IMG/VR virus record: IMGVR_UViG_3300049794_000047
Source of the DNA: a virus
Taxonomy: Duplodnaviria > Caudoviricetes
Direction: 5' to 3' (one strand)
DNA length: 64,000 bases
Position 1 is the stretch's first letter; the number at the start of each line of letters is the position of its first letter. The notes beneath the pieces were generated by a model that saw nothing but the letters and a program-made list of their open reading frames with translations, was not told the origin of the DNA and did no database searches. Below, piece by piece: positions 2,107-25,577 of this stretch. The translations under genes and the position numbers were made by a program.

Positions 2107-3501
2107 CTACGCGCTCACGGTGATGAAGCGCAGGATGTTGTAGGTGAGGGCGAAGAGACAGGCGGTGCCGGTGACCTTGTCGAGGCCGCGCAACGCGGTG
2201 GCGGCCATGCCGCGATGGGCTTTTGCGTCGGCGTTTACCGTCTCGGCGGTCGCGGCGCGCTGCTTGTAGATCTGCTTGGCCTCGTCGGTGCCCATGCGGA
2301 CGCGCCAGGCGGCGACGGCGTCGCTGTCGCCAGGCTTGGGCAGATGAGGGTCGATCGGTGGTTGGTCTGGCGTCTCGGACGCCTTGCTACGCGGCTTGGG
2401 CACCGGCGCGTAGAGGGTCACGCCCGCGGCGGTGGCCTCGTCGATGGCGTCGTGACTGGGATAGCCACCATCGACGAGCAGCTCGGTGGGGCGGACCCCC
2501 GTGCGAGCCTCGATCTGTTCGAGCATCGGGGTGGCTTGGCCTTGGTCGGTGCCGCGGTTGGTGACGCTGACGCCGACGATGGCGCGAGCGGCGTCCGTGG
2601 TGGTGGCGAACTGGGCGTTGAAGGCCGGGCGGAAGCCACCGTCGGGCATCTTCATGACGCGGGCGTCGGGATCGGTGGTGGACACGCGGGGGGTCGCGTC
2701 CTTGGCGCCGCTCTTCTTCTTGATCGCGGCGACGTCGGGGAGCTCGGCGAGCTCGGCGAGCGCGTGCTCGAGCCGTGCGAGCCGATCCTGTGCGACGCGC
2801 GCCATCGTCGCGGCGTGGCGGGCCGTGAGCGCGGGGTCGGTCGCCGCGCGGGTAACCTCGACGAGGTGGGCGCGAGCATCGAGCATGAGCCGCTCGAGCG
2901 ACTCACCGCTGCGAAACGATGCAGCGCCGGCGGACGCGCGGATGCGGGTGCCGTCCTGGGCGACGCAATGAAGATCGATGAGGTCGTGTTTCATGAGTCG
3001 CGCCAGGAGCTGGGTCACGAGTTCGCTGAACACGTCACCGTGGTCGCTGCGGAAGTCGTTGAGGCGGTGATAGGCGACCGCGACGCCGCCGCACAGCCAG
3101 CGGTAGGCGGCGTGGAGCTCGACGAGCCGCGCGATCTCGCGCCCCGAGCCGACGCCGTCACTGGTGGCGTAGACCCAGAGCCCCAGGAGGATCTTGGGGT
3201 CGGTGGCGGGTGCGCCGGCGATCTCGCCGCGGGCGCGGACGTCGGCGTAGAGCCCGCGCAGATCGAGCTTGTCGACGACGGCGGCGATCGCGCGCACCTC
3301 GTGATCGGCGGGCACCTCGGCGTCGAGGTCGACCCGTCCCCAGGTGATCTGGCCGCGCTGCGCGCGCTTGACTCGCACGTCGCGCTCCGGCTGCACCGGG
3401 CAACTCGGCCCGGCCGACCCGGCGGCTTCGTCGGTGGCGCCGGCCCACAACTCGGGCTGGATCGCTGCCCCCGTGCGGGGTGCCGACCGCTTGCGTCTCA
3501 T
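2107..3501 (-). mobile_element. IS1182-family DDE transposase
   Basis: Motifs GAPATDPKILLGLWVYA, SGREIARL, AYRWLCGG, QDGTRIRASA, STTDPDARVMK, LVDGGY, YKQRAATAETVNA. Probable start ATG at 3501 (MRRKRS); the 680-aa ORF N-terminus is a shadow of the neighbouring gene. Confidence 0.9.
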
Positions 3502-4136
3502 GGCCCCGCTCGCTTCCAGCTCTCGCGCAAGAGCCAGGTCTGGGCCGGCGGCAACGCCAGGTCGAGCGCGCCCGCCGACGAGTACGGATCGACGTAGCCG
3601 GGCGCATAGGTCTCGCCGCGCTGGGCGGCGTGCTTGCGCGCGTTGTCGCGGACGTAGCGCATGGCGTGGCGGACCTCGGTGGGCGTGCGCAAGACGCGCG
3701 CGTGATAGCGGTCGTCGAACACGCGGCCCGAGCGCCCCATCATCCGGTTGAGCCCCTTGGCGACGCGGATCGAGAAGCCCTGGACCGCGCGGGCGAGCGC
3801 GCGGCGGTTGGGCGCCTCGACCAGCAGGTGGATGTGGTTGCCTTGGACCGAGAACTGGATGACGCGGACGTCGAAGCGATCGCCACCGATCCGGAGCGCC
3901 GCCGCGATGACGCGGAACGAGCGCCGGCTGCGCAGGTTGTAGACGTGCGGCGCCATGCGCAAGGTGACGTGGAGCGGCATCGGGCGGGTCCACTCGCCGC
4001 GCGAGCGATGTGCCACGCCGGCGCGCGCACCGCGGGGTTTGCGGCCCGCGCCAGCGCGCTTGCCACCCCAGGTCCGGAACTCGAGCGCGAGCTGGCGGGG
4101 GCGACGCCGGGGCACGGGTGGGGGTGACGCCGTCAT
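3498..4136 (-). CDS. HUH/Y1 tyrosine transposase (RAYT/IS200-like)
   Basis: PLHVTLR, SVQGNHIHLLVE (HUH), GRVFDDRYH, RYVRDN (catalytic Y). Its stop overlaps the IS1182 start (ATGA). Confidence 0.85.
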   Translation of the reverse strand: MTASPPPVPRRRPRQLALEFRTWGGKRAGAGRKPRGARAGVAHRSRGEWTRPMPLHVTLRMAPHVYNLRSRRSFRVIAAALRIGGDRFDVRVIQFSVQGNHIHLLVEAPNRRALARAVQGFSIRVAKGLNRMMGRSGRVFDDRYHARVLRTPTEVRHAMRYVRDNARKHAAQRGETYAPGYVDPYSSAGALDLALPPAQTWLLRESWKRAGP

Positions 4137-4261
4137 CTTGATTAAGCATATATTGTCACGACCGTCGGGAAACGCAAGGGCTCTCATCAATCAGGTCCTC
4201 GCGCAGGCGGCGTCCCCACGGGCTAACCGGCGCTGATAGGTGAGATCTTGACGAGCGTGAT

Positions 4262-4386
4262 CGCCGCTCCGGCGACCGCTGCCGCTGCCGCTCCGGCGAC
4301 CGCTGCCGCTGCCGCTGCCGCTGCCGCTCCGGCGACCGCTGCCGCTGCCCGCTGCCGCTCCGGCGACCGCGGCGGAAGCGCTGCCG
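4262..4386. repeat. GCCGCT/CCGGCGA microsatellite-like tandem repeat
   Basis: Many GCCGCT hexamers interspersed with CCGGCGACC units. Confidence 0.9.
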
Positions 4387-4690
4387 GTCGTCGGCGAGCT
4401 GTGGCCGAAGCTGGCTCCTGCGCAGCGAGTCCTGCGTGTTCGCGTCGCTCGCGGTGTCACATCACGCCCCGTGCTTGGCCCCGCGCCGAGGCCGTCGCCC
4501 TTGCGCCGCTCTCGCGCACCGTCCCGCGCCGAGCGCTCGATCCACCGACATCACGCCAAGGGCGTCCCCACAGGTGATCGATCGGCGAGCCGCGAGCGGC
4601 GGTGCCGCGCTCGTCACGGGACGTGCGCTCCGCGGACGCATCGGGCGACGACGGCCCCGGCGCTCGGAGGCCAAGCATAAGGGGGTTCTG

Positions 4691-5011
4691 ATGTTCGATA
4701 CGCTCGAGATGTCGCTCACGGTGCTGGAACGACTCGCTCCGCTGGAGCCCAAGCTCCGCCTGCGCCGCAAGTCGCTCGCCGACGAGGTCGGCCGCGCTGC
4801 CGAATCGATCGCGCGCAACGTCAGCGAAGCGCGGCAGCGTGCCGGCCTCGATCGCGCCGACCTGTTCCGCCGTGCCGCCGGCTCCGCAAGCGAGCTCACC
4901 ACGGCGCTGCGCATCGCGCAGGCACGCGGCTACATCACGCCCGCCGACTTCGCCGCCGTCGATGCGGTGCTGGATCGAGTTCGCGCGATGCTGTGGCGGC
5001 TCACGCACTGA
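4691..5011 (+). CDS. Four-helix bundle protein (23S rRNA-IVS/Avd-like family)
   Basis: LADEVGRAAESIARNVSEA...FRRAAGSASELTTALRIAQARGY pattern. Confidence 0.85.
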   Translation: MFDTLEMSLTVLERLAPLEPKLRLRRKSLADEVGRAAESIARNVSEARQRAGLDRADLFRRAAGSASELTTALRIAQARGYITPADFAAVDAVLDRVRAMLWRLTH

Positions 5012-5299
5012 GTGGCCGGAGGACGTCCGCGCGGAGCTGTCCCGGGTGCGGCGCGGCGCGCGGATCTCGAGCGGTAGCTCTGCCAGTTGCTCGGCATCGA
5101 CCAGCAACGCCACGCGCCGGCCGGGCGTCGAGCCCGGGCTGGCTGTGGGGCTCCGCCGCGTCCCGGCAGGCTCCCAGTCGTCATCCCGAGCCTTCCAGGG
5201 CCATCGGCGGCTCCGTCTTCAGCTCACGATCCTGGCGCGCCGAATCGTGCCCAGGCTCTCAGTCTTCGTCACGAGACGCGAGCACTGAGGTCCCACCCG

Positions 5300-6538
5300 C
5301 TAGAGTGCCTGAACGAGGCGCCCCTGGACGCCACAGAAAAAGAGCGCACTTTCCTTACAGTCCTCTCCACGCGTCGTGACCAAGACGAAGTCTTGACCTA
5401 CGTGCACGGGATCTAGCGTCATGTGACTGCCGACGGTGCGGCCAGCGAAAGATTGACCTGGAAGGTCACCGCCGTTGGCGGCGAGCTGACAACGAATTCC
5501 GATCATGATGTTGTTGACGATCCAGTCGTCTTGGTGAGCGATAACCAGGCGCTCTGGTAGAAAGTCCCTCTGCGGTCGAGCGGTAATCTGCGCGCTTTGT
5601 GTCGACAAGATCGGCACGCGTGTGGACATTGGTAAGAAATAGCTGACCGTGCGCTGGGCGTTCGTGAGTTTCGTGGTGCCCGACAAATCGACCACGAGAC
5701 GCGCGGAGGGGTTGTTCCCGATATAGGTCGCCACAATCTCGACACGATCTTTCGCTGCCAAGGGTTCCAAGATCACAGGGACGGAATCCAAGAACATTTC
5801 CCCGGGCAGCTCTCCTGCTTGCACGAAGATTGATTTTCCGCGTGTTCGAATATCGTTTACGATCCAGTCCTTTGCATCCGCGATTGTGAGGCGATCGACG
5901 AATAGAGCCGGGGACGTGAGGGTCAACGACAGTTTGATGGTTTTGTTAGCCAGCACGCTTTTGGATTCTGCGCGCTCTGCAACGCGCTCGGAAGCGCTTG
6001 CGTCGTGGTGCTCCGTCGCCTTTGTCGGAGGACAACTTTCCCATCCAAACAAGGCTGCCTCGAAGCCCTCACCTTGTTCACTCGAACCTGTATAGGTCAC
6101 CACGGCCACGATTTCTTCGCCGCAACGAACTTTTCGTGAAGTGAGTGGGTGCCAGGCGTCCAGCGAGAACGCCGAGGCATCGCAAGAGTCCGCCTCGATG
6201 AGCGAGGCTTTGGAACCTGTCCAACTTTCGACTGTGAGCTGGTGAATGTCCCAACGCTCCGCGTTCTTGATCAAGAGGCGCTCAGGCCAAAACGCGTCAA
6301 GTTGAGGTCGCACCGTGACCTGAGCAGACTGCCCAGGCAGGATTTTGACATTGACAGGGGTGCTCAACGATAGCGGGACGCGGCGGGCATCCTTCGGAGT
6401 ACTTGTGGTATTCGATGGATTGGGCGCTTCGCTAGCTGTCAGTGATCTCCAAGCAGCTTGGTAGCTCTCGCCGGTCTTGTTTTGGCGCTCACGCACGCTG
6501 AGCTGCAACGCGCGATCCCGTTTCTTATCGTCTCTCAT
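5300..6538 (-). CDS. Uncharacterised protein with three tandem beta-rich RPQ-PERL repeat domains
   Basis: Repeats ILPGQSAQVTVRPQ..FWPERLLI, DRLTI..DWIVNDI, ILSTQSAQITARPQRDFLPERLVI; N-terminal RERQNKTGESYQAAW helix; paralogous to 19850-21151. Confidence 0.7.
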   Translation of the reverse strand: MRDDKKRDRALQLSVRERQNKTGESYQAAWRSLTASEAPNPSNTTSTPKDARRVPLSLSTPVNVKILPGQSAQVTVRPQLDAFWPERLLIKNAERWDIHQLTVESWTGSKASLIEADSCDASAFSLDAWHPLTSRKVRCGEEIVAVVTYTGSSEQGEGFEAALFGWESCPPTKATEHHDASASERVAERAESKSVLANKTIKLSLTLTSPALFVDRLTIADAKDWIVNDIRTRGKSIFVQAGELPGEMFLDSVPVILEPLAAKDRVEIVATYIGNNPSARLVVDLSGTTKLTNAQRTVSYFLPMSTRVPILSTQSAQITARPQRDFLPERLVIAHQDDWIVNNIMIGIRCQLAANGGDLPGQSFAGRTVGSHMTLDPVHVGQDFVLVTTRGEDCKESALFFCGVQGRLVQAL

Positions 6539-13300: not shown

Positions 13301-13862
13301 GCCAGCACGAACCGGCGCTGCGTGCCAGGAATCTGCTGACCGTGCACCCACAACGGGTCGCCGGGTGCGAGCTCGAGCGTGAGCATCGGCTGGGGCTCGG
13401 CCACGCCGGGGGTGATCGCGATGATGGGTCGGCCGTCAGGCAGGATGTACTTGGTGCGGGTCATAAGCCAACTCAGCTGTCCGAGGGGCGTGCAGTTGCA
13501 GCCGTGATGGCTCTCCGACACAGTGCCTCAAGTCCTGACCGTGTGTGAGGCAATCGCAACAACCGACGACGGCGCAGGATGTTTCGCGCTCGGCTGTAAG
13601 AGCCAAAGGACACAGTATCCGCATCGCTGGCATCGAGTTCACCGATCTTTGGATCGAAGAACAAGTCAGGGCGCCCGCAGGGCGCCCGCAGGGCGTGAGT
13701 AACCGTCGTGAGATCGACATTGCGGCCAACTCGTAGGCTTGATAGCGTTTCGTTTCTCGATGGGAGGCCCCTTCGTTGTCCAGGCCAAACAGCACCAGAC
13801 CGATGTTTCGGCGTGGCACCGTGAGCAAGTGACCGATCTCATGCGCCGGCCACTACAGGTTA

Positions 13863-13948
13863 GGGGCTGGACTTTATTAACTTGGTCATTTGAACGATTC
13901 CCCGACGAAGATCCACCAGAAATGACCAGGTTATTTCGTTCCAGCCCC
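13863..13948 (-). mobile_element. 86-bp MITE copy 3
   Basis: TIRs plus TTA duplication. Confidence 0.9.
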
Positions 13949-14852
13949 TTACCGCTTGCTCGCGTTCAGAATGGCGACACAGCGCGCACGCGCTTCGGCC
14001 CGTTCCGCGAGTTGCTTTGGGCTCGTGTCATACGTCACGCGCATCGCGGCGATACACCATGCCTTGGTGTTGAGCGAGGAGAGCGGGGGGCTACCAAGCG
14101 CGAGGATTTGCTCGTCGGTGATCGTCTCGGCAGTGACAGTACCCTTGAACCGTGCGGGATGAGAGGCCGGGTCGTTAAGGCGCGGACAAGGCTGGTAGAT
14201 CGGCACGCGGCGCTTGCCATGCAACTCATCCACGATTCGATGGCCCTTGACGGTCAGCCGTGCATGACAGACACCGCAGCGCATCTACTTGCGCTCCTGG
14301 GCGGGCCAGTCCGTGCGCGCTGCCAACGGCTTTGTACACGTCGTAGAATTCTGCCGGGATGATGTTGTTGACGATGCGCGCTGACCCGAGGCACACGCCG
14401 TACTCTTCAGTACGTTGGATGTCAACCGAATAGGTGTGATTCATACAGTGCTCCAAGGGAGCAACCAAGCCACCCTGGGTAGTTCAGTACCCGTGTCTCT
14501 GGGCCCCTGGGAAGAAACGACCATGGTCAACTCGCTCCGAACTTTGCTCCCGGCGCGAAGGCCAGGAACGCGTCGATCATCGCGATGTGGCGGGCCACTG
14601 GATCCGGGCTGGCCCATTCGGGCGGCACCGTGTAGCAGTCGTTGTCGGTCAGGCACGAATCCTCAAGGTACGCGTGACCTGCCCAGATGACCGCGTCCCA
14701 GCCAAGATCACGACAGTGCTGCTCGTACCACTCGACGATGACGGCGGCGTTCCCGCTAAACACCTTGGCACGCCCAAGGCCAGGCCCCTCAGCGTCAGGA
14801 TTGCCGACGAGCGGAAACGCTTCGAAGTGCGAGTAGAGACACAGATCGTGAC

Positions 14853-15466: not shown

Positions 15467-15634
15467 ATGGTTGCCACAAAGGACAAACAAGGCTTGGCCG
15501 TGCTCGTCCAGGTAAAGATCAACCGACGCGCGGCTCACCTCCTCCGCAAGCGCGCGAAACGTGCCCTGCGTACACAGGCGAGCTACCTCCGCGCTCTCAT
15601 CTACCGCGACCTCGGACTCATTGAGGCCGATTAA
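15467..15634 (+). CDS. Small ribbon-helix-helix-like regulator (55 aa; absent from the ORF track)
   Basis: MVATKDKQGLAVLVQVKINRRAAHLLRKRAKRALRTQASYLRALIYRDLGLIEAD*: alternating beta strand followed by two helices. Confidence 0.6.
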   Translation: MVATKDKQGLAVLVQVKINRRAAHLLRKRAKRALRTQASYLRALIYRDLGLIEAD

Positions 15635-15720
15635 GGGGCTGGAACGAAATAACCTGGTCATTTCTGGTGGATCTTCGTCGGGGAATCGTTCAAATGACCA
15701 AGTTAATAAAGTCCAGCCCC
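15635..15720 (+). mobile_element. 86-bp MITE copy 4
   Basis: TIRs; TAA duplication at the stop codon of the RHH ORF. Confidence 0.9.
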
Positions 15721-15766
15721 TAAGAGTGTTTCGCCCTCGATGAACTGAACCTGGAGAAGCTCTCCC

Positions 15767-16453
15767 ATGACAGTTACTCAGCAAAAGGAAGCCCACAAGT
15801 CTGTAACCGACTACCTTGCCTTCATCGTGTGGGACGGTAGGCCGCGACTCGATCGCTGGCTCATCGATTACGCGGGCGCAGAGGACTCGACGCACGTCCG
15901 CATGGCGTCGCGTGTGATGCTCGTCGCGGCCGTCCGACGCGCGCGACATCCCGGGTGCCGGTTCGACCAGATGCCGGTGCTTGAGGGTCCACAGGGCTGC
16001 GGCAAGTCGAGCGCTCTCCGTGTTCTTGCCGTCGAGGCCTCTTGGTTCACCGACGAGTTTCCGTTCAATGCATCGGGGATGGCGGATGCAACCGCAGGAA
16101 AATGGATCGTCGAGGTGAACGCGTTAAATCTGTTCGATGCCGAGGCACTCAAGGCGATCTTGTCGCGAGGATACGATGCCCGCCTCAGGCCCTACACCCA
16201 CACGGGCACGCAGTTTATGCAGGTGCCGCGACAGTTCGTGCTCATTGGGACCATGAACCTGTCGCCGGTGTCTGGCTACCTCCGTGAGTCGTCAGAAAAC
16301 AGGCGCTTCTGTCCCGTACGGGTGCAGCGCTTCAATCTCGAGAAACTCCGGGCCGACCGCGATCAACTCTGGGCGGAAGCCGTGCACGTCGAGGTGTCAG
16401 GCGGGTCAGTCCGCGTCGCGAATGCTGTTGCTGGATCCCACGTGGAAGGATAA
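15767..16453 (+). CDS. VapE/virulence-associated-E family P-loop ATPase domain (no primase domain)
   Basis: AAVRRARHPGCRFDQMPVLEGPQGCGKS (Walker A), WFTD, KWIVEV, RPY, PRQFVLIGTMN, NRRFCPV, RDQLWAEA. Confidence 0.85.
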   Translation: MTVTQQKEAHKSVTDYLAFIVWDGRPRLDRWLIDYAGAEDSTHVRMASRVMLVAAVRRARHPGCRFDQMPVLEGPQGCGKSSALRVLAVEASWFTDEFPFNASGMADATAGKWIVEVNALNLFDAEALKAILSRGYDARLRPYTHTGTQFMQVPRQFVLIGTMNLSPVSGYLRESSENRRFCPVRVQRFNLEKLRADRDQLWAEAVHVEVSGGSVRVANAVAGSHVEG

Positions 16454-16457
16454 GAGG

Positions 16458-18572
16458 ATGCTCGACAATACGACCGACACGACCGCCGCCGACACGACCT
16501 CCGCCAGTACTACAACCATTCCGCCAAAAGCGCTCAAGAAGCGCGCCCGCAAGACCTCGACCAAGCCTACACGGATCTACAGCTATCGGATCTTGCCTCC
16601 TGAGGATCCAGAGCACCGGAGGCTGGTCGTCGAGCAGTTCTGGCTGGCGCACCAGTACCGTTGCCGGCTGACCGAGATCGAGATCGAGCAGCGCAGCCGC
16701 TTCCGTGCAATCGACCTGGATCACCCGCTCACGCGCGAAGCGACCTCCCACTGGGAGGCGCAGAGCGCGGCGCTCGACGCGACCTATGCGGCGCTGCGCG
16801 CAGCAAAGGCTGGCCGCGCCCCCGAGCATCGCGACGATGAAGCGATCAAGCAGCATCTGAGGTCGCTGAAGGGGGCCTGCACCAAGGCATGGCGTGACGT
16901 CAAGGCAGCGCGCGCACAGCCCGAGGTGAAGGCCCACCATCAGCCGCGCTACGCCGCGGCTCGAGAGACGACCGCTGAGCAACGCCTCGCCGCGCGAGCG
17001 TCGTTCTCTGCCAGAGGTCTGATGCACGGCACGTACATGTGCATCGAGCACGCCGTGGAACGATCCGTCGACTCGACGGGGCGCCCTCCAAAATTCCTTC
17101 GTTATGAGGGCGAGGGTTCGATTGGGCGCCAGTTGCCACGGACGCGAGACAAGAACGATCGGCTCTACAGCATTACGGCAGATGACCTCTACTCCGGGGA
17201 CGACAGTCGCGTGCGGATGACACCCCTGCCCGTGGGCTGGGAGCAATTGGCGCGGACCGCGCGGCGCCGGATCGCCAAGCCGTACCGTGGGCACGCCAAA
17301 CGTCAGCGTCACGGCGACAGTTGGCAGGAGATCCCGGCCCGCCTCAACGGTCAATACCTCGAGATGCAGTTCGGCTGGGGTCCGGCGAAGCGGCCAAGCG
17401 CCTGGATCCGTTTCCCCCTCACGCACCATCGCCGGATGCCCGAGGACGCCGAGATCTTGTGGGTGTACGTCCACCGCTGGCGCGTCGGGATCCACTACGA
17501 GTGGCGGGTGCAGCTCACAATCGAGAGTGAGACGTTTCACCGGCCACAGGTCCCGATCGCGGTCGGTGGCACCTGCGCGATCGACATTGGCTGGCGACGA
17601 ATCTTCGACACGGACGGAAGTCAGATCGGCCTGCGCGTGGCCTACCTGGTCGACGAGCATGGGCAGGAGCGCGAGATCCGCGCGCCGGACGGTCTCTGGC
17701 AGCGGCTTGCGAAGATTTACTCGATCGCGCAGATCCGCTCTCGAGAGCTCGATGCTGCACGCGATCGCCTGGTCGTCTGGATCAGCGATCGGCCGTTGCC
17801 CCCATGGTTCACCGACCGCGCCAAGGGGCTCGCGATGTGGCGAGCGCCGCGCAAAATGCAACGTCTCATTGACACCTGGCAGCGGGAGGAGAATCGTTTC
17901 GAGGACGACGCGGCGGCGCTCACCATGCTCCAGGCCTGGGCGAAGCACGATCGGCACCTCGGGAACTGGGAAGCCCACATGCGCGATCGAACGATCGCCC
18001 ACCGGCGCGAGGTGTGGCGTCAGGTCGCCGCTGAATTGGCACGCACGTACCAGACGATCCTCGTCGAGGACGGGCTGTGCCGATCGGAGGGCCGCGAGCG
18101 CCAGATGAAGATTGTGGACATCGAGGGTTGGGACAAACGTCCCCCAGAGGAGGGCGACCCGCACGAGGGGCGCGAGCAGCGTCGTCAGTCGCGGATGGCC
18201 GCGCCCGGTGAGCTGCGCCTGGCCATCTCTCACGCGACCCACAAGACTGCGTCCACTGTGATCGATGTGGCGCGAAGCAAGAAGTCGACGCGCGAGTGCT
18301 CCTGGTGCGGACACGATCAAGAGCACGCCAACTTTGCGGTCTCGATTGAGATCCAGTGTGAGGGCTGTGGGCGCAGTTGGGATCAGGACGCGAATGCAGC
18401 CCGCAATCTCCTGCACCACCGCGGTCTGACGAGTGGACAGGTACCACCGATCCCTACGAGCGGTCCTGTGCTACTCCTTGACGGGCAGGCGCGCGCACAA
18501 GGCAAACGGGGGAAACGACGCGGCGATGCAGGTAGAGGGCGTCGGCGGGAGGTTAGAGAGACGACCGTTTGA
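16458..18572 (+). CDS. cas12: Compact type V CRISPR effector, Cas12m (V-M/V-U1)-like, TnpB-derived, 704 aa
   Basis: RuvC-I AIDIGWR, RuvC-II ILVED, AAPGELR, Zn finger CSWC..CEGC, RuvC-III DQDANAARN; N-terminal EQFWLAH, RYEGEGSIGRQL and HRRMPEDAEI resemble Cas12m as I recall it. ATG follows GAAGGATAAGAGG; the CRISPR array starts 60 bp downstream. Confidence 0.85.
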   Translation: MLDNTTDTTAADTTSASTTTIPPKALKKRARKTSTKPTRIYSYRILPPEDPEHRRLVVEQFWLAHQYRCRLTEIEIEQRSRFRAIDLDHPLTREATSHWEAQSAALDATYAALRAAKAGRAPEHRDDEAIKQHLRSLKGACTKAWRDVKAARAQPEVKAHHQPRYAAARETTAEQRLAARASFSARGLMHGTYMCIEHAVERSVDSTGRPPKFLRYEGEGSIGRQLPRTRDKNDRLYSITADDLYSGDDSRVRMTPLPVGWEQLARTARRRIAKPYRGHAKRQRHGDSWQEIPARLNGQYLEMQFGWGPAKRPSAWIRFPLTHHRRMPEDAEILWVYVHRWRVGIHYEWRVQLTIESETFHRPQVPIAVGGTCAIDIGWRRIFDTDGSQIGLRVAYLVDEHGQEREIRAPDGLWQRLAKIYSIAQIRSRELDAARDRLVVWISDRPLPPWFTDRAKGLAMWRAPRKMQRLIDTWQREENRFEDDAAALTMLQAWAKHDRHLGNWEAHMRDRTIAHRREVWRQVAAELARTYQTILVEDGLCRSEGRERQMKIVDIEGWDKRPPEEGDPHEGREQRRQSRMAAPGELRLAISHATHKTASTVIDVARSKKSTRECSWCGHDQEHANFAVSIEIQCEGCGRSWDQDANAARNLLHHRGLTSGQVPPIPTSGPVLLLDGQARAQGKRGKRRGDAGRGRRREVRETTV

Positions 18573-18632
18573 AGGAGGTGCTCGCGATCAGGGATGTGAG
18601 GTCGCGCGATGATAATTGAATAGTGATTGACT
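18573..18632 (+). promoter_or_regulatory. CRISPR leader 1
   Basis: GGTGCTCGCGATCA...ATGATAATTGAATAG..GACT; homologous to the leader at about 23267-23332 and partly to 22187-22248. Confidence 0.75.
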
Positions 18633-19471
18633 GTGATGGAGCTTGCCCGAGCGGTTGACGTTCGGGACGCGTCGCGCTGCCGATTCACAGCGACGGCGGG
18701 GGATAGAGCTTGCCCGAGCGGTTGACGTTCGGGACCTGCGATAGTCGCCCACACGCAGGCGGCTGCAGGCGGTGATAGAGCTTGCCCGAGCGGTTGACGT
18801 TCGGGACCGCATAGCATGTCTGGCACACGGACCTGCGCGCACCGGGTGATAGAACTTGCCCGAGCGGTTGACGTTCGGGACGGTGAGCCGATCCCACGGA
18901 TCCACGTCGCGCCGCGGAGGTGATAGAGCTTGCCCGAGCGGTTGACGTTCGGGACTCGTGCCAGATCGAGAGACCATCGTGTGATAGAGCTTGCCCGAAC
19001 GGTTGACGTTCGGGACTCCGGCTCGTCTCCGTAGCGGACGTACACTGTGCTTAGAGCTTGCCTGAGCGGTTGACGTTCGGGACGAACGCGGTCAGGCGTG
19101 CCGACGGCGGGTACGAGATGTTTGCCCGAGCGGTTGACGTTCGGGACTCCGGCGAAAGAATCTTCCTGGGAGTCTGCCCGAGCGGTTGACGTTTTGGGAC
19201 CTGACCACGTCCACGAAGCCGCGTGATTGAGCCTGCCCGAGGGGTCGACGTTCGGGACTGTCAGTGCGAAACTCATGCTGTCCGCAGGATGCACGTGCTG
19301 GAACTTACCAAGCGGTCGTCAGCCCCTGCGCGCGGTTCTATGCTTCGGGTTGATGGGAGGTGCCCGCACAAGATAAGCACAGGGAACAACACAGCTTTGC
19401 AGGGAAAGGTGGCTATGGATCTGGCCGATCTGGGAGTGATGGAGCCTGCCCAAACGGTTGACGTTCGGGAC
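18633..19471 (+). CRISPR. CRISPR array 1 (about 10 repeats, a degenerate tail, and one further repeat at 19436-19471)
   Basis: 36-nt repeat GTGATRGAGCTTGCCCGAGCGGTTGACGTTCGGGAC; spacers 19-38 nt; decays toward the 3' end. Confidence 0.95.
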
Positions 19472-19509
19472 GACGCGGACCCGCGCGCATCACGACGTCC
19501 GCGAGCTGT

Positions 19510-19804
19510 CGGCCGACTGACCAGCAAGGAGCAGAGGGCCGTGCGGACGGCGCTGCGGTTCCTGCGGCTGCGCGTCGGCGCCTGGGGGCCGCTGGCGAAG
19601 GCCCTGCGGTACGAGTGGGACAGCATCCAGAAGGTCGCCACCGGCAAGCGGGCCGTTACCCCAGCGCTCGCGCTGCGGGTGGCGCGGTTCGCCGGGATCC
19701 CCATGGACGAGCTGCTCGCGGGGCAGTGGCTCTCGGCACGGGTCTGCCCGCACTGCGGCCACCCGCCCGAGGACTTCGTCGACGAGGAGACGATGGTCGA
19801 GTAG
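19510..19804 (+). pseudogene. IS-associated HTH gene remnant fused to a CRISPR spacer
   Basis: Near-identical to 33215-33511; followed by end motif AAGGCAACGAAAT. Confidence 0.7.
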
Positions 19805-19849
19805 GTCAAGGCAACGAAATTGGAGCAGTGAGGTCGTTTCGTACCTGAC

Positions 19850-21151
19850 GTGATAGAATCGAGCGAATCACGTTCTGGAGATCCCATGATCAATCGCCTC
19901 GGACTCTACCGACCCCTCCGCCTCCCGCTGCCGATGTCGAACGGGTTTAACATCCTGCCGACGCAGACGGCACAGATCACCGTCCATCCACAGACGAACA
20001 AGTTCTACCCGGAGCGCCTCCTGATCAAGGAGGCCGCTCACTGGAAGATCGACGCGATCCGCGTCGGGGATCGAGACAGTGCCCTCGTCCAGAATCTCCC
20101 AGGGTCGATGTTCGCGCCCGACGCACCGGGGCGCTTCCCGGGTTGCGGCGAGATCGAGATCCCGCCCGGCGGAGAACTGATTGTCGGGGTGACATACACC
20201 GGCCTCCGCGAGGCCGGAATCCCTTTCGAGGCGTGCGTGTTCGGATCCGACGATCGGACGACGATGCCGGTCGCATCGACCTCTCGCCGGGGGGAAAAGA
20301 AGATCGCAACGGCGCGGAGCGAACGCTCGATACCGCACAACCGCTCAACGAAGCTGTCCACGGATCCGATGAAGCGCGATGCGTGGCCGAGTCGTCTCGT
20401 GATCAAGGACGCCTCCGACTGGGTCGTCAACGACGTCCGCGTAGGCAAGGTGTCGATCTTCGCGCAGGCCGGGGACGTCCCAGGAAGCATGTTCTCCGAG
20501 GACGCCAAGAACGCGGGGTCCGCGATCTGCCTGGGGCGCCTGGTCGCCGGAGACAAGTTCTCGGTCATCGCGACGTACATGGGAACCGCGTCCGACGCTG
20601 AGTTTGTGTACGAACTCTACGAAACCCATGCCGAATCCGAAGCTGCCGACCTTCCAATCGCAGTGATCCTGCCGATGTCGACGGGAATCCCGATCCTGCC
20701 GAGCACGTCGGCGCAGATCACGGGCCGATGCCAACCACCGGATGGCTACTTTCGTGGGATTGGTCCCCGCCAGGGCTTCATAGCCGAGCGGATCGTCGTC
20801 GAAGGAGGCGCTGACTGGGTCTTCAACGATGTCAGGATTGGGCGCACGTCGCAATTCGCGCAGGTCGGGGACGTCCCAGGTCTCGCGTTCAGTTCCGGGA
20901 CCCTGGGAGGCGCGGTGTCCTTCGACGCTGCGCAGGCCGGGATCGACGTCGCCATCGTGACGACTCACATCGGACCTTGCGAGGTCGGAGCTGCCTTCGT
21001 CTGCGGAATCCTGGGTAGCCTCGTCGACCTGGCTGAGGTCGACACGTCGCCCAGACGCGGCCGGATCCTGTCAGCCCAGCGAGTCGACTTGTTCAGGCGC
21101 GAGCCCCGTGCCGTCATACTCGACGACCACGCCACGGCGCTGGAGCGATGA
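19850..21151 (+). CDS. Uncharacterised protein with three tandem RPQ-PERL repeat domains
   Basis: ILPTQTAQITVHPQ..FYPERLLIK; DWVVNDVRVGKVSIFAQAGDVPG; DWVFNDVRIGRTSQFAQVGDVPG. Confidence 0.7.
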   Translation: MIESSESRSGDPMINRLGLYRPLRLPLPMSNGFNILPTQTAQITVHPQTNKFYPERLLIKEAAHWKIDAIRVGDRDSALVQNLPGSMFAPDAPGRFPGCGEIEIPPGGELIVGVTYTGLREAGIPFEACVFGSDDRTTMPVASTSRRGEKKIATARSERSIPHNRSTKLSTDPMKRDAWPSRLVIKDASDWVVNDVRVGKVSIFAQAGDVPGSMFSEDAKNAGSAICLGRLVAGDKFSVIATYMGTASDAEFVYELYETHAESEAADLPIAVILPMSTGIPILPSTSAQITGRCQPPDGYFRGIGPRQGFIAERIVVEGGADWVFNDVRIGRTSQFAQVGDVPGLAFSSGTLGGAVSFDAAQAGIDVAIVTTHIGPCEVGAAFVCGILGSLVDLAEVDTSPRRGRILSAQRVDLFRREPRAVILDDHATALER

Positions 21152-21680
21152 TCTTCGCTGAGAGGGATCCTAGAACTGTCGCTGCCAGGGCGTGCGTTGA
21201 TCACCATGAGCAAGGAGCCGACGAGTGAACGATGATTCCGCAACTTCGTGCTCGGGGACGTGTCGGAAAGTCATCTTTCCCTTTTCCTTCTGTAGTTGGT
21301 ACAAGGAGTCCGATGTGCATCGAGGGTGGGGCTGGAGCGACTTCTCCGTTGAGAAGCTGATCGTCAAGACTCGGGAGGAAGAAGATCCAATTGTCAACCT
21401 CCAAATCGACGGGCGCCCGGTCCTCTCTTGCTTGCAGATCGCATCCGAGCCGATGACACAGCGTGTGGACGAGAAGGGGATGAAGTGGTTCGCCAAGACG
21501 TGGGTGCCGGAGGTCGCCACCACGGTGTCGCGGCGCGGCCCGACGACAGCGTTACAGGCCTCGGTCGACGAGCGCAACCAGTGGACCGGCGAAGAGGGGG
21601 CGTTCTACGGCGACATGTTCGTGCCGATCGATCAGCCGCTCGAGTGGGTCGCGTGCCGCGGCGGCCCCCGCTCCGTCACC

Positions 21681-22077
21681 CCGAACGTTCGGGACCTCGG
21701 CCTGCTCGCTGGCATGCTCCGCAGGGCAAATGTGATAGAGCCTGCCCGAACGATTGACGCTCGGGACACCAAGCGCGCGAGGGAACTACAGGCACGAATT
21801 CGAGGGACAGCATCTGCCCGAACGGTTGACGTTCGGGATGAAGGCAAGTGGTCGCCCTCTGGGATAGAGCCTGCCCGAACGGTTGACGTTCGGGACGGAG
21901 CGGCCAAGCGCGAAGCAGCGCGTGGGGCGTCAAGGTGATAGAGCTTGCCCGAGCAGTTGACATTCGGGACCAACCGGCAGAAGTGCGCCGATCGCGCGTC
22001 GTGATAGAGCCTACCCGAGCGTTTGACAGGGGTCGGCGTACATGATGGAATCTGCCTGAACGGTTGACGTTCGGGAC
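21681..22077 (+). CRISPR. CRISPR array 2 (degenerate, about 7 repeats)
   Basis: Variants of the same 36-nt repeat at about 21732, 21803, 21861, 21935, 22001 and 22042. Confidence 0.85.
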
Positions 22078-22248
22078 GACAGGTAGATCTTGACCGCTCA
22101 GAATTCAGACTTCAATGATGTCGCAGGAAACGACGCGGAGACTCAGGTAAAAAGCACTGTCGTGACAGGGGGAGGGCGCGAGACCCCTTTGAATAGAGTC
22201 CGTGCAAGTGTAGTAAAGAATGTAATGGCAATTGAATAGCTGTTGACT

Positions 22249-23098
22249 GTTGATGGGGCTTGCCCGAGCGGTTGACGTTCGGGCAATCTGTACGACGCGC
22301 TGTGCCCAGGCTGGGTGATGGGGCCTGCCCGAACGACACCCGTTCGGGACCCCTGAGGCACGTCGCGGCTGATGTTGGCACTACGCGTGATAGAGTTTGC
22401 CCAAAACGGTTGACGTTTGGGGCCGGCAACCTGGCTGGTCAGGATCACGGGAGTGATAGAGCCTGCCCGAGCGGTTGACGTTCGGGACCACCGCGCGAGG
22501 ATGACGACACGACAGATTAACCGGCCTGCCCGAGCGGTTGACGTTTGGGACGATGAGCACTTCCTTGGGGCGCTAGAGCCTGTCCGAACGGTTGATATTG
22601 GTAATGCGGATACTGCTCGCGACAGCCGCTTGTACCGGCTGTAATAGAGCCCGCCCGAGCGGTTGACGTTTGGGACAAGGAGACAGCAACTGCGTACGAA
22701 GTGCTGGGCAATGTGATAGAGCCTGTTCGAACGGTTGACGTTCGGGACAACCCGGCGGTGCTGAAAGCGCTGTCGGTTTCTTTGTGATAGCACCTGCCCG
22801 AACGGTTGACGTTCGGGACATCATCGGCGGAAGTTAGGGGCTGGAACGAAATAACCTGGTCATTTCTGGTGGATCTTCGTCGGGGAATCGTTCAAATGAC
22901 CAAGTTAATAAAGTCCAGCCCCTTAGCGAGATGGAGCTTGTCCGAGCGGTTGACGTTCGGGACGTAAGGCTCGGCCACCTGCCGGGTCGTGCTGGAGCTC
23001 GCCCGAGCGGTTGACGTTCGGGACTGCGGGTCTTTGCCCCGCTTTGGCGGGGCCTCGATCGCAAGATAGAGCTTGCCCGAGCGGTTGACGTTCGGGAT
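22249..23098 (+). CRISPR. CRISPR array 3 (about 12 repeats, interrupted by a MITE)
   Basis: AT-rich leader ending AATTGAATAGCTGTTGACT followed by repeat variants. Confidence 0.9.
22837..22922 (+). mobile_element. 86-bp MITE copy 5, inside a CRISPR spacer
   Basis: TIRs plus TTA duplication between two repeats. Confidence 0.9.
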
Positions 23099-23332
23099 CG
23101 CAATCCAAGCAGGGGTGCTCGTCGGTCAACCGGGCTGCGTGACGACGCCAACCCACGCGAGCGGTCCTATGCGTCGAGTTGATGGGAAGGCGCTCGCACA
23201 AGATAAGCACAAGAAACGACACAGCTTTGCAGGTAAGGTCAATGTCGAAATGTTGAAGAGCCGTCTGTTTGAATGGGGTGCTCGCGATCAGTGCAGTAAG
23301 ATCGCGAAATGATAATCGAATAGTTGTTAGCT

Positions 23333-25577
23333 GTGATGGAGCCTGCCCGAACGGTTGACGTTTGGGACAAGTGGGACGGTGACGACGTGCCGGCCTTCAT
23401 GCGTGTGATGGAGCCTGCCCAAACGGTTGACGTTTGGGACGCTGGATGCGCGATGAGGACGACGAGCAGGCTCGAAGTGATGGAGCCTGCCCAAACGGTT
23501 GACGTTTGGGACCTACGCGAATGCGAGCGGTACTTTTGAATCACCGAGGCGTGATGGAGCCTGCCCAAACGGTTGACGTTTGGGATCCGGCGTGCGGACC
23601 GTGCGCCTGTGGTGCAAGCGGGAGTGATGGAGCCTGCCCAAACGGTTGACGTTTGGGACCCAAAGTCACCGAGGCGAACCGACACGGGAGATACGGCGTG
23701 ATGGAGCCTGCCCGAACGGTTGACGTTTGGGACGGGTGGACAGTGATCACCGCCATCGTAGCGCTCGCGTGATGGAGCCTGCCCGAACGGTTGACGTTTG
23801 GGACAGCCGTCGCCACGGATCCACCGCATCCACCTGCCTCATGTGATGGAGCCTGCCCGAACGGTTGACGTTTGGGACGAGAAGCAGGTCGCGGACACGC
23901 GGCGGCTGGTCAACGTGATGGAGCCTGCCCGAGCGGTTGACGTTTGGGACGCGGACAGCCCGACGCCCCCCTGATGAGCCTGCCCGAACGGTTGACGTTT
24001 GGGACGCGCCGTACGCCGTCGTGGGCACGGTGAATCCATTGGTGATGGGGCCTGCCCGAACGGTTGACGTGTGGGACGAGCTGGTGAGCACTTCAAACCC
24101 GGCATGCCGACTTGTGATGGCGCCTGCCCGAACGGTTGACGTTTGGGACTCGTCGCCACGCGTCCGATGCTCCCGGAAGACGCACGTGATGGAGCCTGCC
24201 CGAACGGTTGACGTTTGGGACCGGTGATGGGGCGTCATGGATCGTCGCCCTTCACGCGTGATGGAGCCTGTCCGAACGGTTGACGTTCGGGACAACCCGA
24301 CGGTGCTGAAAGTGCCGTCGGTTTCTTTGTGATAGCACCTGTCCGAACGGTTGACGTTCGGGACGCCGCGTGGCTCCGCGTGTGATAGAGCCTGCCTGAA
24401 CGGTTGACGTTTGGGGCCAACGTAAGGACGCGGCGCGTAGATCTGAATCGCCGTTGTGATAGAGCCTGCCTGAACGGTTGAGGCCAGGAGCGTGCGCGAT
24501 CGACGTCGCCATGCTCGCGGTGATAGAGCCTGCCCGAACGGTTGATGCTTCGGGACTATCCGACTGAACTGCACAAGCGCGGATTCAACGGCATGATGGA
24601 GACTGCCCGAATGGTTGACGTTTAGGACCAGGCTGCGCCGACAGCAACCGCGCGCCGGTTAAGCGTGATGGAGCCTGCCCGCGCGGTTGACGCTCGGGAC
24701 ACCTGTACGACGCGATGCGAGGAATGGACACAGGCCGGGTGATGGAGTTTGTCTAAGCGACTGACGTTATGGACGTGAGAATTCCGACGCGCACAAGATG
24801 GAGTGCGCTAATAGGCGCTTGCCCCAATGGTTGAACCCCTCGACTACTTCACCAAACTCGCGAGGAAAACTGCGTGATAGAGCCTGCCCAAACGGTTGAC
24901 GTTTGGGACAACAGCGGGCACTCTAACAGACTCGGCGCGCGCCTGGTGATAGAACCTGCCCAAACGGTTGACGTTTTGGGACGCATGAGTCTCCACTCCC
25001 ACATCGACCTAGCTTTTGTGATAGAGTCTGCCCAAACGGTTGACGTTTGGGACCAGGTGCTCGGCATTGGGCCCGTCGATGTCGCCGCTGGTGATAGAGC
25101 CTGCCCAAACGGTTGACGTTTGGGACAAGTCAAGCCTGGGTGACGTGATAGAGCCTGCCCAAACGTTTGACGTTTGGGACAAGAGATCCACCAGGCGATC
25201 GCGCCGCTGGCACGCGTGATAGAGCCTGCCCAAACGGTTGACGTTTGGGACCGTCCCACAACACTGCCAACTACGTCGCCGCGTGATCGTGATGGAGCCT
25301 GCCCAAACGGTTGACGTTTGGGACAACCGTACGAACCTCGCGAGTTGTGATGGAGCCTGCTCGAACGGTTGACGTTCGGGACCTTACGAACCCACGGGAA
25401 AACGAGGATCGCTTTCTGGTGATGGAGCCTGCTCGAGCGGTTAATGTTTGGAACGGTCGGGTTTGTGGTTGATTGCCTTGACGGCAGCGTGTGATGGAGC
25501 CTACTCGAACGGTTGACGTTCGGGGACACCTGTACGACGCGCGGCACAGGATAGAGTCTGCCCAAACGGTTGACGCT
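23333..25577 (+). CRISPR. CRISPR array 4/5 (about 33 repeats in two blocks; second block starts at 24874)
   Basis: Repeat GTGATRGAGCCTGCCCRAACGGTTGACGTTYGGGAC, spacers mostly 35-38 nt; each block decays at its 3' end. Confidence 0.95.

Follow-up and report, generated by a model that had tools for sequence, protein, structure and literature searches.

The locus described here raises the question of whether a CRISPR effector of the Cas12m family that has kept a complete RuvC active site cuts DNA or only binds it. It lies on the + strand of a 64,000-nucleotide stretch of the IMG/VR virus record IMGVR_UViG_3300049794_000047 (Duplodnaviria; Caudoviricetes), referred to below as the window, and comprises the gene cas12m, which encodes the protein P0001, and the CRISPR arrays that follow it. 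An earlier note on this DNA had suggested that P0001, a Cas12m-like protein with an Asp-Glu-Asp (D-E-D) triad, might be a nuclease-active, compact intermediate between TnpB and Cas12m. The answer favoured here, to which we give a probability of about 70%, is that P0001 would act, as a D-E-D Cas12m of clade 3, as a DNA binder and silencer guided by CRISPR RNA (crRNA).

The gene and the residues on which the question turns are:

16458 to 18572, + strand: cas12m (type V-M / V-U1 effector), coding for P0001, a stop-free frame of 704 codons
17583 to 17585, + strand: RuvC-I Asp, D376, in the motif CAIDIGWR
18066 to 18068, + strand: RuvC-II Glu, E537, in the motif TILVEDG
18387 to 18389, + strand: RuvC-III Asp, D644, in the motif WDQDANAARNL, where D642-Q643-D644 is invariant
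18297 to 18368, + strand: TNB zinc finger of the CCCC type, C614/C617/C634/C637 (Pfam PF07282, E 3.7e-09)
17427 to 17432, + strand: H324-R325, equivalent of Cas12m2 H269-R270 (VQVHRWLP aligned with LTHHRRMP), nearly invariant in homologue alignment A4

The three acidic residues are thus all where the earlier note had placed them, and the four-Cys finger that it reported is present. In a HMMER alignment to 8hio/8hhl the triad stands opposite the Cas12m2 motifs VALHLGWR, VLVDD and YDQD; D376, E537 and D644 therefore occupy the RuvC-I, RuvC-II and RuvC-III positions and are not Asp or Glu residues found there by chance. Cas12f and Cas12a need a conserved TNB arginine (R490 in Cas12f) for cleavage, which Cas12m might lack; the stretch between the two CxxC pairs of the finger of P0001 contains no Arg or Lys. 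In Cas12m2, H269/R270 read C(-1), A(-2) and the G:A pair of the crRNA scaffold (PMC10442227). A mapping of the Arg-rich pocket of Cas12m2 (R111/R112/R126) onto P0001 was also tried but dropped, as the N-terminal alignment was low-scoring.

Translation was taken to begin at ATG 16458, which has a Shine-Dalgarno-like GGAAGG/AAGAGG directly 5' and is equivalent to the start of the orthologues, which begin ML[DT]. Two longer versions were rejected because the orthologues begin at this point: the 716-aa JGI gene call from the upstream ATG 16422 and a 762-aa open reading frame (ORF) from GTG 16284. The gene is intact and under purifying selection, the ratio of non-synonymous to synonymous substitution rates (dN/dS) against two orthologues being 0.13-0.16 for the whole gene and 0.10-0.13 for the core.

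The assignment to Cas12m made in the earlier note was borne out by profile and by structure. The PADLOC profile Cas12u1 (V-U1, now V-M) matched residues 38-653 of P0001 on profile positions 3-528 of 533 with an E value of 5.3e-76, and phmmer against the PDB returned 23vw (5.7e-43), Cas12m2 (5.5e-25), GoCas12m (6.5e-17) and UnCas12m4a (4.2e-06). Pfam recognised the TNB finger PF07282 alone, and the NCBIfam model guided_TnpB reached 31.5 bits, below its cut-off of 100, with a match confined to the ~80 C-terminal residues. An AlphaFold2 model built from 59 homologues, with a mean predicted local distance difference test (pLDDT) score of 81.9, showed a WED beta-barrel, a REC helical coiled coil, a split RuvC and the finger. 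The coiled coil lies here:

16608 to 17078, + strand: REC1/REC2 helical coiled coil, the Cas12m 'sickle' or 'Roof' (aa 51-207), with AlphaFold2 helices H51-88, H90-117, H128-153, H155-185 and H190-207 at pLDDT ~90

Its counterpart in Cas12m2 and GoCas12m is the coiled coil described there as REC2. When the model was submitted to Foldseek the four best matches were Cas12m2 and GoCas12m (E 1e-31 to 4e-24, template modelling score 0.52-0.69), with Cas12f and TnpB next at ~1e-11. Profile and fold, together with the adjoining array and the results on tracrRNA and adaptation genes given below, identify P0001 as a Cas12m (type V-M, formerly V-U1). An ordinary TnpB encoded by an insertion sequence (IS) was considered and rejected: P0001 has 704 residues with a REC2 coiled coil, its match to the TnpB profile is partial, and where an omega RNA would be expected there is a CRISPR array.

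A D-E-D triad in Cas12m is not new and has already been published. The earlier note had contrasted P0001 with characterised Cas12m proteins, which it took to have altered RuvC residues, citing His in RuvC-I of MmCas12m (Cas12m2). The example was correct, Omura 2023 giving the Cas12m2 triad as H317, D485 and D579 (HDD; PMC10442227), but the premise was not. In the clades of Wu et al., as quoted by Omura 2023, clades 3 and 4 of Cas12m carry DED (PMC10442227), and the eight proteins of Bigelyte 2024 comprise four D-E-D, two H-D-D and two N-D-D variants, the D-E-D ones being MsCas12m (536 aa), ApCas12m (628 aa), UnCas12m (583 aa) and TfCas12m (567 aa) (PMC11013384). The same paper reports that double-stranded DNA (dsDNA) cleavage was detected in an adapter-ligation assay with none of the eight, that six of them gave a binding signal dependent on a protospacer-adjacent motif (PAM), that purified MsCas12m (c3, D-E-D) cut neither target DNA nor RNA and had no collateral activity, and that TfCas12m produced plasmid interference when aimed at the origin (PMC11013384). 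In Cas12m2 the HDD site holds a metal and the displaced strand, and cleavage was not regained when DED was restored (PMC10442227); the triad alone is therefore not sufficient. The claim of novelty in the earlier note thus rested on an incomplete picture of the literature: P0001 belongs to a described clade with the same residues, a c3 homologue of 703 aa is listed in Table S1 of Bigelyte 2024, and P0001 would itself, by way of its assayed relatives, only bind.

The guide for such binding would be supplied by the arrays directly 3' of cas12m, where ~55 copies of a 36-nt repeat, all on the + strand, extend up to position 25526:

18633 to 19471, + strand: first CRISPR sub-array, 36-nt repeats GTGATAGAGCTTGCCCGAGCGGTTGACGTTCGGGAC, decaying toward the 3' end
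21732 to 25526, + strand: further sub-arrays of the same repeat family in the same orientation, ~45 repeats

Folding of the repeat (-15 kcal/mol, z -2.9 to -3.4) gives a hairpin with an 8-bp stem and a 5-nt loop, the end of which is 2 nt away from the spacer. With its 3' AC, this hairpin has the same design as the Cas12m2 scaffold. Orthologues 77-79% identical to P0001 have the same repeat directly 3' of the gene (5 repeats in contig L001, at least 111 in L002/L003), so the pairing of effector and array is conserved. The repeats that accompany relatives on Virus Rctr197k and on a Pelobacter plasmid are also 36 nt long and end in GAGAC. No anti-repeat longer than 11 nt was found outside the arrays on either strand of the window, which supports a predicted system without a trans-activating crRNA (tracrRNA), served by a single crRNA guide. 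A search with Pfam or PHROGs, which covered larger ORFs of the window but not all those as small as cas2, likewise gave no cas1, cas2 or cas4, and neither did the precomputed Pfam annotation of contigs L001-L003, L010 and L011. V-M systems normally lack adaptation genes, and the absence of an anti-repeat is equally usual for them (PMC10691335).

These features suggest how the system might work. The arrays would be transcribed, and P0001 would bind the 3' hairpin of each repeat, with H324/R325 reading the terminal A-C as in Cas12m2. The pre-crRNA would then be cut within the repeat without a tracrRNA, in a self-processing reaction that would be independent of RuvC. The resulting crRNA of ~50-60 nt would direct P0001 to PAM-flanked dsDNA, where an R-loop would form and the complex would remain bound, so that transcription or replication of the invader would be blocked instead of its DNA being cut. 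The D-E-D site would grip the displaced non-target strand through Mg2+ and would not be a working DNase. Binding without cleavage, self-processing and this role of the triad are all drawn from the published relatives.

The behaviour of the triad among homologues of P0001 bears directly on this last step. Seventy-five homologues were found, ~37 of them 64-99% identical to P0001, ~700 aa in length and all metagenomic. Of the 71 long proteins in the alignment (query included), 67 have DED, the others being NGD (two), NED and NAD, and 69 have the CCCC finger. Across 59 homologues D642-Q643-D644 is invariant and D376 and E537 are nearly so (at least 90%). That only D644 of the triad is invariant fits a putative metal- and strand-binding role like that of the Cas12m2 HDD site.

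A tree was calculated with MsCas12m, PpCas12m, MkCas12m, a mycobacterial HDD protein, a Manganitrophus plasmid protein and the protein of Virus Rctr197k as references, and was rooted on the c2-like row. P0001 fell inside a fully supported clade of ~700-aa proteins, whose sister clade (support 99) holds P0066 (NGD) and P0065 (NED). Outside these two clades branch first P0064 (NGD) and then shorter D-E-D proteins, 557-638 aa long; a separate c4-type branch of four rows (Pp, Mk, Manganitrophus and P0076) has support of 100. On these sequence grounds P0001 is a member of clade 3 (c3; DED/NED in Wu 2022 and Bigelyte 2024); where exactly MsCas12m branches is not fixed by the tree. Because its position is deep within a clade rich in D-E-D, to which shorter proteins are outgroups, P0001 is an enlarged derivative and not a compact TnpB-like intermediate; at 704 aa, with a full REC coiled coil, it exceeds in length all characterised Cas12m proteins (536-628 aa), contrary to the description in the earlier note. 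Both NGD genes (P0066 and P0064) have their full length and an array of related repeats behind them, at 8029-8322 in L010 and 8217-12258 in L011. Interference in this lineage therefore does not need RuvC catalysis.

Several points weigh against the DNA-binding reading. The Cas12m proteins that have been assayed all lie outside the ~700-aa subclade, so that binding by P0001 is argued from relatives, and the four assayed D-E-D proteins are only 25-40% identical to it. The negative assays were performed at 37 °C, with protein made by in vitro transcription and translation or purified (PMC11013384). D-E-D is kept in all 37 close relatives, and the columns of the triad are among the best conserved in the wider family; a dispensable site would not be expected to behave in this way. 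A lid extension and a WED hairpin specific to the lineage could alter activity, and Omura 2023 speculates that two-metal hydrolysis of DNA may occur in clades 3 and 4 (PMC10442227). In addition, no protospacer, and hence no PAM or target type, was found when the spacers of the window, L001 and L002 were compared with the window and the fetched loci; the search gave only partial matches of 16-20 nt or unmasked copies inside the L002 array region. Neither two of the spacers (as 24-nt 5' parts) nor the repeat pattern had an exact match in the viral contig collection.

Much of this would also suit a D-E-D site that is a working RuvC nuclease or nickase in the ~700-aa subclade, performing crRNA-guided cutting of the target DNA, or of the displaced strand only. 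The strict retention of the triad, in the 37 close relatives as in 67 of 71 family members, the low dN/dS of the core, the speculation of Omura 2023 and the lid and WED additions of this lineage can all be cited for it. It is nevertheless unlikely, as cleavage was seen with none of the four D-E-D proteins tested, c3 MsCas12m included, and was not regained by restoring DED in Cas12m2; moreover, the nearby NGD and NED lineages have lost D and E with their genes intact and their arrays kept (the two NGD loci were checked), and P0001 lacks none of the Cas12m binding features, having both the REC coiled coil and the HR dyad. That the ~700-aa subclade has kept or regained RuvC catalysis and would represent the first Cas12m to nick or cut its target, or that its site serves a new RNA-guided reaction, is similarly a long shot. 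The triad might instead be retained to cut RNA, with DNA interference still by binding, either in pre-crRNA processing or in trimming of the spacer 3' end, as RuvC does in Cas12c/Cas12j. Guide processing that depends on RuvC and Mg is found in other type V effectors, processing by MsCas12m is Mg2+-dependent, and such a role would account for conservation of D-E-D in a non-cleaving clade. This reading is contradicted by the D274A and D485A results, and the NGD relatives keep arrays that must be processed; it is accordingly rather more doubtful.

The least probable account, and a very unlikely one, is that the locus is a decaying or non-defence remnant that has lost interference or has only a regulatory role on a mobile element. 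Many of the repeats in the window are degenerate, spacers of 16-31 nt are interspersed, the arrays are broken by a 2.2-kb gene cassette and by a miniature inverted-repeat transposable element (MITE), and the searches for adaptation genes and protospacers described above were negative. Set against this are the intact gene and its dN/dS, the recurrence of the same locus in several soil data sets, the large regular arrays of at least 111 repeats beside orthologues, and the fact that adaptation genes are normally missing from V-M systems (PMC10691335). A protein identical to P0001 over all 704 residues is encoded on another assembled contig and one 99% identical in a JGI metagenome, and two further soil runs contain 48-75% of the sampled words of the window; no RNA data set was listed among the sequencing runs that contain it. 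Elsewhere, 185,579 species genomes of GTDB were searched with two peptide patterns, giving 40 pattern matches and no confirmed relative of the ~700-aa clade, and nothing was found when the viral contig collection was scanned with P0001 and with alignment A3, so that neither the published IMG/VR contig of the 703-aa homologue nor evidence of a viral carrier came to light there. Binding and silencing remains the preferred reading of P0001.

The extra length of P0001 consists of lineage-specific additions, of which the earlier note had correctly recorded the Thr-rich N-terminus, an insertion and the basic C-terminal tail:

16458 to 16544, + strand: Thr/Ala/Ser-rich N-terminal extension (aa 1-29), predicted disordered, pLDDT <50
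17277 to 17333, + strand: clade-specific WED insertion (aa 274-292, KPYRGHAKRQRHGDSWQEI), a predicted beta-hairpin with AlphaFold2 strands E281-285 and E288-292, pLDDT 84-91
18069 to 18218, + strand: extended lid after RuvC-II (aa 538-587), 13 residues longer than in 23vw (gaps of 8 + 5)
18438 to 18569, + strand: basic C-terminal tail (aa 661-704), predicted disordered, pLDDT <50 from residue 667

The two ends are weakly held. The N-terminal extension has a dN/dS of 0.5-0.67 and is lacking in shorter relatives, which start at the conserved basic MKRKTSTxPTR, a segment that is part of the family core and not of the extension. The C-terminal tail is weakly constrained, with a dN/dS of 0.37-0.59. 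The insertion picked out in the earlier note, KPYRGHAKRQRHGDSWQE, corresponds to aa 274-291, and the dN/dS of aa 270-300 is 0.05-0.08, which is below that of the core and makes this the most constrained stretch measured. K274, R277, Q283 and Q290 are invariant across the ~700-aa clade. The WED insertion is real and functional, and its position in the model, beside the side of WED that binds the crRNA handle and the PAM, suggests that it may contact nucleic acid. In the lid, a concept taken from the work on Cas12m2 (PMC10442227), aa 552-569 have pLDDT <50 and are predicted to be disordered, and P563-R576 is invariant in the ~700-aa clade; the lid contains the conserved motif GDPHEGREQRR.

A second type of insertion occurs in the WED region of other members. 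At least seven orthologue clusters at 90% identity (P0009, P0010, P0012, P0014, P0016, P0017 and P0018; 807-824 aa) carry an in-frame fragment of ~100 aa of an IS66 transposase, matching positions 150-255 of 284 of the PF03050 profile (E 2.9e-19). Its place is a loop that joins strands of WED, at the equivalent of about 17150-17160 in the window (aa 231-235). These proteins are otherwise 67-81% identical to P0001 and keep D-E-D. This looks like the capture and retention of a piece of transposase inside a Cas12m.

The arrays have several further peculiarities. For type V-M, whose arrays were called short by Altae-Tran 2023, those of L002/L003 (12199-20817) and of the window (18633-25526) are very long, with no adaptation genes visible. 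The DNA of the gene tail and leader, 18445-18668, recurs at 23146-23368 and in part at 19317-19406 (74-87% identity). The recurring unit, the last ~130 nt of cas12m with the leader and the first repeat, stands ahead of later sub-arrays, which therefore seem to stem from duplication of a 'gene tail + leader + array' unit. A single duplicated spacer was found, at 22749-22783 and 24294-24328 in two sub-arrays (91% identical). The 2.2-kb cassette that interrupts the arrays (19472-21731) is associated with two ORFs, 19223-19804 (193 aa), the start of which falls inside repeat and tail sequence, and 19850-21151 (433 aa), which has three internal repeats of ~125 aa; neither had a Pfam or PHROG match. 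The MITE-like element is 91 nt long with inverted ends AGGGGCTGGA...TCCAGCCCCT, and its two copies, 99% identical, lie just 5' of a VapE fragment (15634-15724) and inside the CRISPR region (22836-22926), with related ends at 13859-13954.

The VapE fragment is a 228-aa ORF (15767-16453) that ends 4 nt before the start of cas12m and contains only a VapE-like P-loop domain (PF05272, E 6e-48). It is a truncated primase/helicase, matching positions ~460-666 of phage primase/helicases of ~800 aa. An independent Logan contig (L012) has the pair of VapE fragment and cas12m as well; in L001 and L002 the genes 5' of cas12m are different, and the pairing is therefore not conserved. The window appears to derive from a soil metagenome. 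Around cas12m the window (G+C content 62.6%) contains transposases, two integrases and many small ORFs without a family match. When the neighbouring ORFs of the window and of L001/L002 were scanned with PHROGs and Pfam, no capsid, terminase or conjugation genes were found, and the scan yielded only the VapE fragment, transposases, the two integrases and a superinfection-exclusion-like protein. The contigs that carry the orthologues are 240-460 kb long, and their gene content is similar. The carrier of the locus may be a phage, a plasmid or a chromosomal island.

If P0001 is a DNA binder, little changes: a known family of natural CRISPR effectors that bind DNA gains a large branch from soil, with a near relative already catalogued. 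The retention of D-E-D in non-cleaving Cas12m proteins still lacks an explanation across the family, and the present subclade, which is well populated and has NGD and NED sisters, is therefore a good natural comparison for finding the purpose of the triad. How the protein handles its PAM or guide could be affected by the constrained WED hairpin and by the extended lid, a point of some interest for Cas12m scaffolds in base editing and CRISPR interference (CRISPRi).

A known homologue of the same lineage is entry 111 of Table S1 in Bigelyte 2024 (703 aa, from East River riparian soil; IMG/VR 3300020000, Ga0193692_100002460; CRISPR +; placed in clade c3). It shares with P0001 a Thr/Ser/Ala-rich N-terminal extension followed by RKTSTKPTRIYSYRILPPEDP, the insertion KPYRGSAKRQPHGDGWQE, the motif CAIDIGWRR, its length and its soil origin. 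It is a separate orthologue, about three quarters identical by eye over the ~400 residues printed, and is a catalogue entry only.

Among plasmids the best tblastn match was MsCas12m (WP_013159911.1, clade c3) of the (Allo)meiothermus silvanus plasmid NC_014214.1, with 29.9% identity over 76% of P0001 (E 1e-38). Both have D-E-D, a CCCC finger, a single-effector locus with an adjoining array and no adaptation genes, and a mobile or accessory replicon, but MsCas12m has 536 aa against 704, and the N-terminal extension, WED hairpin, longer lid and C-terminal tail belong to P0001 alone. A further D-E-D relative, of 622 aa and 28.7% identity, is encoded at 2971-4839 of Virus Rctr197k (L005, KX853510.1), a 197-kb Caudoviricetes record of 2016, next to an annotated CRISPR array at 4873-6387; this record is older than a 2026 preprint that claims the first phage-encoded Cas12m.

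The closest solved relative by sequence is 23vw_A, a 'CRISPR-associated DNA-binding protein Cas12m' of 577 aa (E 5.7e-43 over residues 312-653 of P0001). It resembles P0001 in AIDLGWR, IVLEE and WDQD (D-E-D) and in the CCCC finger, and differs in being shorter, without 13 of the lid residues and without the WED insertion. As its D316/E469 equal D306/E459 + 10 and its 577 aa equal 567 + 10, it is probably a tagged TfCas12m. Cas12m2 (MmCas12m; 8HHL, 8HIO) and GoCas12m (8PM4), of clade 2, share with P0001 the fold, the REC coiled coil and the crRNA-reading HR dyad, and their loci likewise have a 36-nt repeat with a 3' hairpin, no tracrRNA and no adaptation genes. They differ in their HDD triad, HCCC finger, length (596-607 aa) and actinobacterial hosts, and are ~21-22% identical to P0001. 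TnpB (IS200/IS605) and Cas12f have the RuvC + TNB core in common with P0001, but their fold match is 20 orders of magnitude weaker than that of Cas12m, and P0001 has the REC2 coiled coil, with a CRISPR array in contrast to the omega RNA and IS ends.

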